Virus record (IMG/VR): IMGVR_UViG_3300030419_004148
Coordinates: 11,526-75,525 of that record
Length of the DNA: 64,000 nt
Strand: one strand, 5' to 3'
Source: a virus
The notes under the pieces: model-generated
Told to the model about the DNA's origin: nothing
The model's database searches: none
What the model saw: the letters and a program-made list of their open reading frames with translations, nothing else
Program-made: the position numbers and the translations under genes
In this document: piece after piece, positions 8,769 to 54,333 of the stretch
How positions within the stretch are numbered: position 1 is the first letter of the stretch
Layout: each line of letters starts with the position of its first letter

Positions 8769-10130
8769 ATGAAGATAATGCCAATTAGTGATTCGCCTTG
8801 GGCTCCTACAGGATTCGGGACGAATACAAGAAATATAGCGTCAATTTTTGCAGAAGAAGGTCATACAATAGGTTATGCTGGGTGTCAAAACGCAGAGCAC
8901 AATCCTACTTGGGAAACACCGTGGCCTTTAGGTCAGGAAGAAAAAAAGGTATCTTTTGAGATATTACCTTTGATGTTTCCGGGTCAAGAAAAGTTTGGAG
9001 AAAAGTCTTTTCCTAAATGGATGGAAGGTTTCCAACCAGAATTAGTATTTACACACCTCGATATTCAAATGTTTGATTATGTTACTAAAGGTAAAGTAAT
9101 AACTGGAGTTAACATTCCTTTTGAAAACCAAGACGGTGGAGCAATAAACAGAGCAGAATTTATTAAAATAGCTAGAAAAGCATTTAAAACAGCTAACAAA
9201 GATAGATTTAAACTTGCCTCTATTATTCCAATTGATGGGCAACCTTCTATACCAGCGTGGATAGAAACAATTAAACACGTTGATTATCCTATAGCAATGT
9301 CTTATTATGGTCAAACTGTAATGAGAGAAGATTTTAATGGATATGATTCTACTGTTATTTCCCACGGTGTAGATACAGATTTCTTTAAACCAGTAGATAT
9401 GCCTAAACCAAATGGTGCGTTTGTTGTGGGGTGTGTGGCACGAAATCAACACCGTAAAAACATACCACGTTTAATGAGGTCATTTAAAATATTTGTAGAA
9501 GAAAATAACATTTCACCTGATGATGCAAAACTATTGTTGCATATGGATTGGACTGACCATATGGGATGGAATATACAATATATGGCAAGTGAGCACGTAT
9601 ATGATATTGCTGATTATCTAATACCACCTACGATGGGTAATTTAGAAAAGGGCGAACACCCTGATGACCAAGGGATGGTTGACATTTACAATATGATGGA
9701 TGTTCACGGTTTGCCAACTGGTGGTGAAGGATTTGGTATTCCTACCGTAGAAGCAATGGCTTGTGGTGTTCCTAATGTAATATGTAACTACACGACTAGT
9801 TATGAATTAGTGGGAGCAGACAAACCAGAATGTCCAACAGAAATGCTTATGCCTCACGGTTGGGATGGTGATGATAATTTAATTGAAACTGATAGAGGTT
9901 TCCTAGTACCGTATAAAGATATAATGTGGGATACTCCTATTAGAGCAGCACCAAGACGTGCTATGTGGGATGAACGAGCAGCAGCAAAAGCTTTTGAGTA
10001 CTATTATAACAACCGTGATGTATGTAAAGAACACGGAAAGAATGCAAGAAAATATGCAGTTAAACATTATGACTGGATGAAAGCAATAGGACCGAAATGG
10101 AAGAAGTGGTTGAAAACAGTGAGAGTATGA
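8769..10130 (+). CDS. Glycosyltransferase family 4 (GT-B)
   Basis: DSP..PTGFG, HGVD..FF.P, ARNQHRKN, GEGFGIPTVEAMACGVP. Confidence 0.9.
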   Translation: MKIMPISDSPWAPTGFGTNTRNIASIFAEEGHTIGYAGCQNAEHNPTWETPWPLGQEEKKVSFEILPLMFPGQEKFGEKSFPKWMEGFQPELVFTHLDIQMFDYVTKGKVITGVNIPFENQDGGAINRAEFIKIARKAFKTANKDRFKLASIIPIDGQPSIPAWIETIKHVDYPIAMSYYGQTVMREDFNGYDSTVISHGVDTDFFKPVDMPKPNGAFVVGCVARNQHRKNIPRLMRSFKIFVEENNISPDDAKLLLHMDWTDHMGWNIQYMASEHVYDIADYLIPPTMGNLEKGEHPDDQGMVDIYNMMDVHGLPTGGEGFGIPTVEAMACGVPNVICNYTTSYELVGADKPECPTEMLMPHGWDGDDNLIETDRGFLVPYKDIMWDTPIRAAPRRAMWDERAAAKAFEYYYNNRDVCKEHGKNARKYAVKHYDWMKAIGPKWKKWLKTVRV

Positions 10131-10786
10131 AAACATATATATTCTATCATTGTACCACAATAGGTGATTATCACCAAAGGTTCTTAAAAACATATTTTAA
10201 GGCAAAATTATCAGGACTTGTAGATAGATGCACTCGATTTTTTGTTTGCATAAATGGTACTGAATCAGTTCAAAATAATTTATTTGAAATAGATAGTAAA
10301 GTAAAAACTATTGTTGTTTCAGAAGAAAAATATCCTAATGAATCTATTACTATAAATACAATAAAAAGATTCTGCGATGATTTAGAAGATAGAGCAAATA
10401 TATTATATATACATAATAAAGGAGTAACAAAGCCAAATGTACTCAACGTTCAAGAATGGGTAGATTATATGGAATATTTTGTTATAGAACAATGGGAAGA
10501 TTGTTTAATGAAATTAAGAATGAATAGTAAATTATGTGTAGGAACTGAAGCAAAACACGGATTTGGTGGTGACCAATGGCATTATTCAGGTGGTTTTTGG
10601 TGGGCACAATCAGAACATATAAAGACATTACCTTTATGTAGCAGTGGTTACTTTGATGCTGAACAGTGGGTATTGAAACCTCTAGATAAAAATGATTTCC
10701 ATAGTTATATGGAATTGAATAAAGAACAAATGGGGTTTTATAACCATAAAATATCAAGGAAGGATTATGAAAATGTGGTTGAGTGA
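10127..10786 (+). CDS. Putative glycosyltransferase-like protein
   Basis: ILYIHNKG..W..YMEYF..HYSGGFWWA..AEQW pattern typical of phage glyco-clusters; ATGA start at 10127. Confidence 0.55.
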   Translation: MKTYIFYHCTTIGDYHQRFLKTYFKAKLSGLVDRCTRFFVCINGTESVQNNLFEIDSKVKTIVVSEEKYPNESITINTIKRFCDDLEDRANILYIHNKGVTKPNVLNVQEWVDYMEYFVIEQWEDCLMKLRMNSKLCVGTEAKHGFGGDQWHYSGGFWWAQSEHIKTLPLCSSGYFDAEQWVLKPLDKNDFHSYMELNKEQMGFYNHKISRKDYENVVE

Positions 10787-10880
10787 ATATGAAAGTCCGA
10801 ATCATCTAGATGTAATGTTTTTCATTATATTCTTTTACCCTCTAGCTGTAGAATATTTAAAATGGAGATTGGGAATATGA
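10773..10880 (+). CDS. Single-TM microprotein (35 aa)
   Basis: MWLSEYESPNHLDVMFFIIFFYPLAVEYLKWRLGI; its stop overlaps the next ATG. Confidence 0.45.
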   Translation: MWLSEYESPNHLDVMFFIIFFYPLAVEYLKWRLGI

Positions 10881-11224
10881 ATTTTGTGTTTGGATTAGAA
10901 GATGTAATATGCACACCTCACGCTGATTTTAATGCGTGTAGACCTATAGCTAATGTAACTCCGTTTATGCAATGGTTAAAGAAAAAGGGACATCACATTA
11001 CAATATGGACAAAAAGATTAAACGATTTAGAATCTAAATTAAAAACTGAACAATGGTTACAGGCTCATCAAATACCTTACGATAGATTAATATTTGATAG
11101 ACCTAGAAAAGCTATTTTTGTAGATGAAACACCTTGTAATGCTAAATATTATACACATAGTGAAGATACTTATGTTGTTGCTGAATTATTTGAGGAATGG
11201 AAGTTAGATTTAGATGTTAGGTAA
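10877..11224 (+). CDS. HAD-superfamily phosphatase-like protein, probably inactive
   Basis: GH.ITIWT.R, T..WL....PYD.L, IFVDE; motif I DxD replaced by GLE. Confidence 0.65.
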   Translation: MNFVFGLEDVICTPHADFNACRPIANVTPFMQWLKKKGHHITIWTKRLNDLESKLKTEQWLQAHQIPYDRLIFDRPRKAIFVDETPCNAKYYTHSEDTYVVAELFEEWKLDLDVR

Positions 11225-11486
11225 AAACGGACCGTTAATGAAAGTGAAATGGCTAGATGCTGTAAATGAAAGAGGAATGAAAAAGATAAATGTAGAAGAC
11301 CCAAGTGAACATTTGTGCTATTGTGAAACAATAGGAGAAGTGGTTGCACAAGATGAAAGAGCTATAATAATTACATATCATTATACTGATTTTGATGGCG
11401 TAGATTTTATATGCATCCCTACTTCTTGGGTTGTTGAAATGGAGGAATTGACTTGTTTAGAGAATTCGGAATCCCAGCAAGGGTAA
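11214..11486 (+). CDS. Small beta protein (Sm-like phage family)
   Basis: VKWLDA..CETIG.VV..D...I.I...IP..WV pattern. Confidence 0.5.
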   Translation: MLGKNGPLMKVKWLDAVNERGMKKINVEDPSEHLCYCETIGEVVAQDERAIIITYHYTDFDGVDFICIPTSWVVEMEELTCLENSESQQG

Positions 11487-52822: not shown

Positions 52823-52861
52823 AACTGTTTACCGTGCTCCTAAGAGCCGATTTTATTCTAT

Positions 52862-53944
52862 CTAAGTGTTGATGCAGATTACACCAGCTTCAGGTCGGAT
52901 AATCTTGAGACCGTATCTCATAGACATATATGAACCGACAATTCCGAATCCGGGATTTGCTTCTTCAACAGTTAGTGCACGTCTTTCTAAGTAGGTCATT
53001 GGCTTGACTGACATATCAAATACTCCGAACCTTGAAGAAGGTACGTATGCATTTGTATAGATGTTCAATCCGTACAATGAACCAACAAGTCCGTTTTTAG
53101 CTGTGTTTTCTAATGGACCCAATTCACCACCAGAATCACGTGGAGTACTTGCGACGTATACAGAAGTAAAGTCTGCAATATCCAATAATGATTTGTAGTG
53201 TTTTGGTGAAATCACGACTGTGTCTGCGTTGTAACCGTGTTGACCAATCATTTCGATTGCGTTGGTTAAATCAGACATATTCAACATACCTGCTGATGAA
53301 GACGCAGCTGCTACATAGTGACCTCTTTGTAAGTCAGTTGCTGCAGTTAGACCGTAATCGTATAGACGACCACTTCCGACTGTACCACCGCTTCCGATGA
53401 ATCCACCATATATGTTTGCACCGAAATCAGTAATGCTTCCAGTTCCGGGACCTTCAGCGGTACCTGCAACTATATCTGCTGCTCCACTGATTCCTGTACC
53501 TAGCGCATCATCTTGAAGACCAAATAACGCATACACAACGTGTTTCGTCATATGTCTCTCGACTGCTCTCTTAGCTTCGTTGAGGGCCAATTCAATTTCA
53601 TTGAATCTTGAATCCTCAATCATCCTGCGGGTTACACCTACTGCAATACCCCATTCCTTAACTGACACTCTCTCGGAGCGTAGTTTAGTGTGTTGGTATG
53701 CTGGTGTGCTTCCCTCATCAATTTCTTCCATAACCATTGATGGAAGGTTGAAGGTTATGTCCACGTTTCCACCAGTGTCGGTTGTCATTTGCTCTGTAAA
53801 CAAGTTTATTGCTGGAAGGTCAGTTACTTTATAATCGACCAAAGAATCTTTGTAGTCGATAAGTACTCTCTCTCCCGTACCACCTGTGTTAGCATATACA
53901 CCTTCATTGTTGGAAGTTAATAATCCAGTTTGTGCTGTTACCAT
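52862..53944 (-). CDS. Major capsid protein (HK97 fold)
   Basis: EIDEG..P, WGIAVGVTRRMIEDS, GSLYGLNIY, MRYGLKIIRPEA. Confidence 0.9.
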   Translation of the reverse strand: MVTAQTGLLTSNNEGVYANTGGTGERVLIDYKDSLVDYKVTDLPAINLFTEQMTTDTGGNVDITFNLPSMVMEEIDEGSTPAYQHTKLRSERVSVKEWGIAVGVTRRMIEDSRFNEIELALNEAKRAVERHMTKHVVYALFGLQDDALGTGISGAADIVAGTAEGPGTGSITDFGANIYGGFIGSGGTVGSGRLYDYGLTAATDLQRGHYVAAASSSAGMLNMSDLTNAIEMIGQHGYNADTVVISPKHYKSLLDIADFTSVYVASTPRDSGGELGPLENTAKNGLVGSLYGLNIYTNAYVPSSRFGVFDMSVKPMTYLERRALTVEEANPGFGIVGSYMSMRYGLKIIRPEAGVICINT

Positions 53945-53958
53945 ATTTATTCACCTCT

Positions 53959-54333
53959 TTAGAAGAACAGTACCTTGATAGTACTTGCTCCACTGCCCGC
54001 TTCTAGGGCTATAGCGACGGTTTGGTCTCCTGCTGCTCCGGCATCTGCCTTCAGCTTACCTGCTCCATCGCACATCAAATCTCCACCGAGAGCAATAGTC
54101 CCAGTGCAGTTAGCTTTCAGTTGTACTCCACGTCCCGTTACAACATTACACAAATTTCCAGAGGTTGCTGCGGTTAAAGCTACTCCTAAAGCAGCTGAGC
54201 CGCTGGTTCCGTTAGCAATAACGCCGTATGCTGTCTGTTGAAGACAGTCTCCGGCTGCTACAGTACCACCTGCTGAAAAAGGCATAATACGGGCTGGTGC
54301 ACCACCATCATTTACAATTATTTCTGTTGCCAT
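53959..54333 (-). CDS. Capsid cement/decoration protein (DUF2190-like)
   Basis: AGG..AGD, LGVAL..A.SG, VAIALEA; upstream of MCP. Confidence 0.7.
   Translation of the reverse strand: MATEIIVNDGGAPARIMPFSAGGTVAAGDCLQQTAYGVIANGTSGSAALGVALTAATSGNLCNVVTGRGVQLKANCTGTIALGGDLMCDGAGKLKADAGAAGDQTVAIALEAGSGASTIKVLFF

Follow-up and report, generated by a model that had tools for sequence, protein, structure and literature searches.

Does a virus that encodes glycosyltransferases next to large serine- and glycine-rich particle proteins sugar-coat those proteins at Ser-Gly (SG), or does the wealth of SG reflect how the proteins fold? The question is raised by a stretch of 64,000 nucleotides of IMG/VR virus record IMGVR_UViG_3300030419_004148 (hereafter the window), which corresponds to bases 11526-75525 of a single contig of 75,525 bases rated complete by CheckV. 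Judged by its gene content, the window carries the modules for replication and morphogenesis of a tailed, magrovirus-like virus of marine Poseidoniales archaea, the complete genome of which measures 75.5 kb. Magroviruses rank with the most abundant viruses of archaea in the surface ocean, and none is known in culture. A preliminary description of the window proposed that a cluster of sugar enzymes decorates the virion at an SG sequon in the cytoplasm, in the manner of proteoglycan-type O-glycans. The SG excess is a real, lineage-wide idiom of beta-rich particle proteins. We infer that the motif is primarily structural and specific to the lineage, with a probability of roughly 0.55; a sugar coat attached at Ser-Gly on the virion is less likely.

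The SG counts of the preliminary description were reproduced: the proteins of 1219, 793 and 1438 aa contain 31, 22 and 21 SG, respectively, and PolB contains 1. Together, the six giant particle proteins contain 160 SG against 90.4 expected from shuffled sequences (1.77-fold, z 8.2), which rules out composition alone as the cause; the reversed dipeptide, GS, reaches 1.38-fold. SG is the most over-represented dipeptide of the giants, with V enriched at -1 and S and T at +1. Among the smaller structural proteins SG stands at 1.62-fold and GS at 1.06-fold, and among the non-structural proteins at 1.50-fold and 0.84-fold, respectively. The proposed surplus of SG over GS holds for four of the giants and fails for the 1641-aa (36 SG, 42 GS) and 2019-aa (32 SG, 31 GS) proteins. 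The extended motif [VILAT]SG[ATGSN], which was defined on the window itself, is found 71 times in the giants against 14.3 expected (5.0-fold, z 15), and its reversed form 36 times against 14.2 (2.5-fold). For the smaller structural proteins the corresponding counts are 16 against 3.8 and, reversed, 4 against 3.6; for the non-structural proteins they are 3 against 1.5 and 0 against 1.4. The giants are not significantly richer in SG than the rest of the same proteome (p 0.10, 0.24, 0.96 and 0.55). A cause at the level of DNA was rejected as well, as codon-junction dinucleotide bias predicts just 1.00 for SG and 1.01 for GS. SG sites employ all serine codon families, with AGT making up 48% in SG and 35% elsewhere.

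Several control sets lack the excess, and it is therefore not general to proteins, phage particles or beta-helices. The structural proteins of T4 show SG at 1.15-fold and the motif at 0.8-fold, and T5 gives 1.17-fold for SG overall and 0.8-fold for the motif in its tail and fibre proteins. The solved beta-helix tailspikes TSP1-4 of CBA120 have SG (1.31-fold) and GS (1.28-fold) at nearly the same level, with the motif at 1.1-fold. The forward motif reaches 1.6-fold in E. coli Ag43 and 1.4-fold in halovirus HGTV-1. In 584 cellular ORFs, mostly of Patescibacteria, SG is at 1.10-fold and the motif at 1.13-fold forward and 1.17-fold reversed. A generic turn of beta-helices or phage fibres is rejected on the same grounds, as the CBA120 tailspikes, T4, T5 and Ag43 are without forward excess.

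The context of the SG sites points to a structural origin. In AlphaFold2 (AF2) models of two proteins, those of 963 and 793 aa, 19 of the 40 SG serines lie at the C-terminus of a strand, either as its last residue or at most two residues after it (background 0.26, p 0.003). Hydrophobic residues are enriched 1.9-fold at -3 and 1.4-fold at -1, small residues 1.6-fold at +2. Charged and polar residues are scarce at -3 and -1, and over the span from -5 to +4 the charged ones stand at 0.4-0.9-fold. This flank pattern is the signature of an exit from a beta-strand, and it is absent from GS sites. Across 53 homologues of the 963-aa tail protein SG reaches 2.11-fold and GS 0.90-fold; 14 alignment columns in which at least 30% of the sequences have SG account for the excess (the remainder stands at 1.16-fold), and the family has no conserved GS column. 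Between the window and its relative G006, whose proteins are 40-68% identical, 45% of the SG serines are replaced, by A (9), T (8), D (7), N (6) and V (6), in such even numbers that a preference for a hydroxyl group is not apparent, contrary to what an acceptor serine would require.

Depletion of SG in the helical tape measure protein (0.25-0.9-fold) and the presence of the motif in the scaffold-like protein fit the structural interpretation too. The tape measure protein (26709-28961, minus strand; matches to 16 PHROG tape-measure families) has 1 SG against 4.0 expected, and its family 0.5-0.9-fold. The class II ribonucleotide reductase (16258-18126, plus strand; phrog_367, 3e-162) served as a cytoplasmic internal control. 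Its observed-to-expected ratio for SG lies at 2.4-2.5 among the viruses and at 2.15 over 76 homologues from cells, from which it follows that a strong SG excess can be purely fold-based. The closest cellular relatives of the viral reductase (L155-L234), at 46-55% identity, are almost all from Patescibacteria (candidate phyla radiation, CPR) and not from archaea.

If the SG bias were laid down for sugar enzymes, it might be expected to follow the sugar genes, as the preliminary description implied. We compared relatives sampled as 79 loci via the capsid protein, 45 via the 963-aa protein and several whole contigs, which are phylogenetically dependent and thus not independent samples. The 25 related long contigs all carry a GT4-type glycosyltransferase, and some carry in addition an accessory island of sugar genes. 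SG stands at 1.52-fold with the island and 1.74-fold without it in the 963-aa family, and at 1.87-fold and 1.55-fold, respectively, in the 1438-aa family. The motif is at 1.7-2.5-fold in G002, which has the island, and at 1.8-2.9-fold in its near-twin G001, which does not and whose head genes are near-identical. Giants of genomes with GT4 only show SG at 1.75-1.94-fold. Whole-genome sums over the giants had hinted at the island as a driver (1.77 and 1.60 with, 1.17 and 1.29 without), a hint that fails in the wider sets; the difference arises because the giant families present differ by genome. By type, the 2019-aa giants stand at about 1.0-1.3-fold everywhere and glycine-rich types at 0.1-0.6-fold. 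Nor are extra LamG giants strictly tied to the island, since G014, G021 and G022 have such giants and GT4 only. The SG bias is independent of the accessory island, and the expected link between sugar cluster and SG bias was not found. For GT4 itself the comparison of presence and absence is uninformative, because the gene is universal and a GT4-free relative is lacking.

The case for a structural idiom is built on the position at strand exits, the conserved columns, the lack of preference for a hydroxyl group, independence of the island and the precedent of the reductase. In this idiom, a beta-strand with inward hydrophobic residues at -3 and -1 ends in serine, glycine opens the turn and a small residue follows. 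It recurs along the rungs of beta-helix fibres and on the edges of Ig, FN3 and LamG sandwiches. In the 963-aa protein, the one family examined, the excess is inherited at conserved positions.

Several observations pull the other way. The values for CBA120, T4, T5 and Ag43 given above indicate that such folds do not carry the motif as a rule. It reaches 2-5-fold in particle proteins and about 1.5-fold in the other-strand ORFs of the same viruses (pooled 18 against 12.3), and such a bias toward the virion would also be expected of a surface sequon. SG serines are kept more often than other serines between the window and G006 (55% against 39%), and strand alternation predicts that the serine side chain faces outward and is thus accessible. 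The 5-fold value in the window is inflated relative to the 1.3-3.6-fold seen in relatives, the motif having been defined on the window, and the model of the 793-aa protein that enters the structural argument is of low confidence (pLDDT 62.8).

Which enzymes could act on such a site depends on what the sugar genes are. The preliminary description saw one glyco-enzyme cluster with four glycosyltransferase-like genes and an epimerase; because other genes lie in between, there are two units split by replication genes. The first unit is a core pair of GT4 and HAD-like phosphatase, set amid PolB (5623-7851, plus strand), primase and reductase and retained by all relatives. As had been described, the gene at 8769-10130 (plus strand) encodes a GT4-type (GT-B) transferase (PF00534 Glycos_transf_1, 38.2 bits against a cut-off of 26.4; phrog_2170, 2e-27). 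Residues E320 and E328, in E-x7-E spacing in the C-terminal domain, are invariant in 26 homologues; the family was found in all 25 related long contigs, and among its 480 homologue clusters the best 120 are 50-99% identical. A profile search returned generic GT4 structures only, including B736L of chlorovirus PBCV-1 (3oy2, E 8e-6). A closer identity was sought, and known GT4 enzymes match just its nucleotide-sugar half. The small HAD-like phosphatase (10862-11224, plus strand; phrog_1238 1e-9, phrog_415 1e-7) is weakly matched by TIGR01689, capsule biosynthesis phosphatase, and by a PDB profile, and its gene is syntenic with that of GT4 in all relatives covering the region.

The supposed fourth glycosyltransferase did not survive: the neighbours of GT4 are, besides the phosphatase, a DUF8361-like protein and a primase-like protein. 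The protein with DUF8361-like features (10097-10786, plus strand) has no Pfam, PHROG or NCBIfam match and no homologue among 45 related loci, and a protein atlas places it with viral-family DUF8361 clusters at 0.98. The gene at 11453-12523 (plus strand) encodes a probable archaeo-eukaryotic primase (AEP), with weak but concordant PriS matches (NCBIfam, E 0.011; PDB 1zt2, E 0.028) and with D61-x-D63 (DxD) and G96-G97-x-G99-F100-Q101 (GGxGFQ) invariant in 19 homologues; on these grounds it was rejected as a fourth glycosyltransferase. Its C-terminus holds a conserved cysteine cluster, possibly a zinc-binding tail.

The second unit is a strain-variable island, always inserted at the same site, with the primase block on one side and the reductase on the other. 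Its first gene in the window (13615-14463, plus strand) encodes a GT-A/GT2-like transferase with an EDD motif. This assignment of the preliminary description is weakly supported by the window's own sequence (PF00535, 17.3-17.9 bits, under the cut-off of 23.3), and the orthologues in G006, G008 and G002 exceed the cut-off (25.1-29.2 bits). It is followed on the same strand by an NAD-dependent sugar epimerase/dehydratase of the SDR type (14460-15518; PF01370, 3.4e-39), in line with the predicted epimerase; among the NCBIfam models, all of which remain under their curated cut-offs, GalE scores best (97.5 bits) and a model of the UDP-xylose synthase type gives 64 bits. The third gene (15481-16224, plus strand) encodes the DUF5672 protein that had been named before (PF18922, 61.6 bits against a cut-off of 24.4). 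This protein has 55 homologue clusters, and its look-alike clusters in the atlas are mostly viral; we dropped it as a proven transferase because no solved relative was found by sequence or by PDB profile search. Between the primase block and the island (12797-13604) lie four small ORFs, one of which encodes a 49-aa Lys/Arg-rich peptide.

The island, defined by GT2, epimerase or extra GT1 genes, occurs in only 6 of the 25 related contigs, all from the nearest subclade of the window (GT2 genes in five of the 25, epimerase genes in four). It always occupies one slot adjoining the reductase, and its content varies by strain: GT2-like, SDR and DUF5672 genes in the window and G006; GT2-like and CAP59-like in G002 and G007; CAP59-like, GT2-like, SDR, GT1 and DUF2334 in G008; and Ugd-like, DegT aminotransferase, methyltransferase, SDR, formyltransferase and two GT1 genes in G009. 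All six sugar-related proteins of the window are without hydrophobic segments and thus soluble, in agreement with the cytoplasmic enzymes proposed before, and the genome has no membrane-anchored transferase, flippase or oligosaccharyltransferase. These enzymes are likely to glycosylate the virion or the host envelope in some form, and our best guess for their product is a strain-specific glycan on the fibres or tail of the virion, or on the host envelope.

The first alternative to a structural idiom is that the universal, soluble GT4 O-glycosylates, in the cytoplasm, the outward serine where a strand runs into a Ser-Gly-small turn in fibre, tail and tube proteins, and that the island enzymes, in strains that have them, extend or vary the glycan. 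We regard this as improbable. It would account for a motif that is virion-biased, orientation-specific and lineage-specific, absent from T4, T5, CBA120 and cellular ORFs, and found alongside GT4 in every genome. It is also consistent with the above-average conservation and the predicted exposure of the SG serines, and with the S/G/T/A-rich loops of the tube protein. The 793-aa protein, as modelled, appears to have the fold of TibA (Z 13.9), which is hyperglycosylated by TibC. Other observations speak against it. The motif does not scale with the accessory sugar genes, replacements of the serine do not favour a hydroxyl group, and the excess in the 963-aa family sits at conserved fold positions. 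The motif occurs in the scaffold-like protein, which is normally absent from the finished particle, and the capsid protein shows almost no excess (4 SG against 3.1 expected). GT4 is encoded in the replication block on the opposite strand, its co-occurrence with the motif is uninformative where every relative has it, and the cytoplasmic reductase has an SG excess of similar size, although for the dipeptide only. The complete proposal, in which the turn is the true O-glycosylation sequon of the universal magrovirus GT4, particles are sugar-coated at defined beta-turns and the island diversifies the glycan, we hold to be rather unlikely.

The closest known parallel is the modification of TibA and AIDA-I by TibC and Aah. 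TibC heptosylates Ser-313, which lies within an NSGG string of the TibA beta-helix adhesin (PMC4358343). As in the alternative just described, a soluble cytoplasmic enzyme O-glycosylates serine on a right-handed parallel beta-helix adhesin, and the low-confidence model of the 793-aa protein has the parallel beta-helix that the comparison calls for. In contrast to TibC/Aah, the transferase of the window is a GT4, and the genome lacks a GT9/heptosyltransferase (no PF01075 match) and a recognisable ADP-heptose pathway; the host is an archaeon, and the acceptor would be the virion. The analogy with these bacterial autotransporter heptosyltransferases (BAHT) thus fails on enzyme family and may stand as a working model.

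Soluble viral transferases combined with clade-variable sugar-nucleotide enzymes are likewise found for the capsid of chlorovirus PBCV-1, the fibrils of mimivirus and Che8-type mycobacteriophages, and the islands of relatives of the window include amino-sugar and formyl-sugar genes, as in virus-encoded virion glycosylation. Those three systems are chemically proven; for the magrovirus-like virus, glycosylation is predicted from its genes. In mycobacteriophages the sugars are reportedly attached to extensions at the C-termini of capsid and tube proteins, and not at an SG turn; the capsid protein of the window is without SG excess. With eukaryotic proteoglycans, where Ser-Gly is O-xylosylated by GT14 enzymes, only the dipeptide is shared. 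The xylosyltransferase of eukaryotes acts in the Golgi. The complete genome has no GT14 or Branch-domain match at E 0.1 in a search that does find matches in control genomes, and acidic residues around SG are depleted here, in contrast to their enrichment at proteoglycan sites; the suggestion of a proteoglycan-type acceptor was therefore abandoned.

A second alternative, also doubtful, moves the target from the virion to the host: the sugar genes would act on S-layer or membrane glycans, or on lipid-linked precursors, for superinfection exclusion or release, and the SG motif would be unrelated. The genes are grouped with early and replication genes on the plus strand, the island varies like a surface-polysaccharide locus (the G009 set; CAP59-like with GT2 elsewhere), and the small HAD protein weakly resembles a capsule biosynthesis phosphatase. 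However, neither the six soluble proteins nor a genome devoid of membrane-anchored transferase, flippase and oligosaccharyltransferase suits such a role, and published interpretations of such genes in related viruses point to virion proteins. In Krittikaviridae/Velanvirus and Aoguangviridae, which belong to the same virus order, a GT4 near the tail genes was read from gene position alone as glycosylating tail or capsid proteins (PMC11706807). The idea of virion glycosylation is thus already in print, and the SG motif, the universal GT4-phosphatase pair and the variable island go beyond that work. Glycosylation of viral DNA by the core GT4, like that by the T4 glucosyltransferases, is highly unlikely, for although the highly conserved gene lies between PolB and primase in every relative, Pfam scans of the larger ORFs (the smaller were not all scanned) gave no hydroxymethylase, thymidylate-synthase-like or TET-like gene, and GATC is completely avoided on either strand of the window (1-64000; 0 against 171 expected from dinucleotide-preserving shuffles), which would be needless if the DNA were globally hypermodified.

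The particle proteins in which the motif is found are encoded on the minus strand. The 963-aa tail protein (19489-22380; SG 18, GS 4) is a string of FN3/Ig-like beta-sandwiches in its AF2 model (pLDDT 83), for which Foldseek returns alpha-2-macroglobulin domains, FN3 strings and tip-attachment and minor tail proteins. The 1438-aa tail protein (22382-26698; SG 21, GS 14) has a weak LamG-like domain (PF13385, 23.6 bits, under the cut-off) and 12 copies of [VILAT]SG[ATGSN] against 1.2 expected. Two paralogous tail-tube-like proteins of 219 and 207 aa (29638-30925), labelled from gene order and without family match, carry S/G/T/A-rich loops and 5 SG each, against 1.5 and 1.7 expected; the string VSGG..VSGTLSGT noted in the preliminary description is present in 29638-30297. 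The two genes adjoin, both products begin with M-x-YFLGS, and both genes are kept in relatives.

The 1219-aa giant (35228-38887; SG 31) resembles a fibre or adhesin with one LamG (ConA-like) domain (Laminin_G_3, 2.8e-20) and repeated 'hhhSGt' strings, the motif being present 18 times against 2.7 expected; its homologues are in G006 (68%) and G008 (42%). The 1641-aa giant (38887-43812) has four LamG/ConA-like lectin-fold domains (Laminin_G_3, 3.8e-71, four stretches). The 793-aa protein (43805-46186) is modelled as two tandem right-handed parallel beta-helices, the fold of tailspikes and adhesins. All 50 of the 50 best matches of this model in VIA-align are beta-solenoid or repeat proteins, nearly all of them parallel beta-helices (Z 12-15), among them EtpA (Z 15.4), the Fri1 tailspike (14.4) and TibA; only 16 relatives were found among 1.8 billion representatives. 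The head-proximal 2019-aa giant (46703-52762) has SG at 1.28-fold and its homologues in relatives at 1.0-1.25-fold. The major capsid and scaffold-like proteins (52862-54333) match PHROG major head and scaffold families.

Between the capsid and neck genes (34975-52862), the window holds what is among its relatives a hypervariable cassette of one to four giant genes over about 6.6-18 kb. In several loci (L019, L026-L031, L061-L065, L147-L149) unrelated giants are swapped in, one type of which contains 24-25% Gly and 3.5-4% Ser. At L125:13400-19715, homologues of the 173-aa and 1641-aa head-proximal proteins follow the 343-aa tail gene and not the capsid gene, and from this displaced position the giant cassette may be a movable fibre module.

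The identification of the virus stems from ORF calling and family scans, which show the gene complement of a tailed virus, and from agreement of the gene set with the Poseidoniales magroviruses (PMC11706807). Replication and metabolic genes occupy positions 1-18126 on the plus strand (DNA methylase, RecU-like resolvase, PolB, PDDEXK nuclease, sugar genes and the class II reductase). The minus strand carries the head genes (terminase, portal, scaffold-like protein, major capsid protein), the giants of 2019, 793, 1641 and 1219 aa, and the neck genes, two tube-like paralogues, tape measure and tail proteins of 1438, 963 and 343 aa. The usual order in about 25 relatives is 963-aa, 343-aa, reductase, two small genes, primase-like, small gene, HAD-like, GT4, small gene and PolB. 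One relative of 67.3 kb (G022, the contig of L134) is recorded with direct terminal repeats, which makes it a complete linear genome that could serve as the family's reference.

The GT4-phosphatase pair in the replication block and the hypervariable island at a fixed slot hold under either interpretation of the motif. If the motif is only structural, an SG excess beside glycosyltransferase genes does not by itself amount to evidence for a sequon, a caution that follows from the persistence of the bias without accessory genes and from the similar excess in a cytoplasmic reductase. If turn-motif glycosylation were true, the motif would be a sequence-level marker of virion glycosylation in metagenomes, and the universal GT4 would offer a tractable enzyme for experiments; how the particles recognise hosts, decay and are grazed would then depend on a glycan made by the virus.

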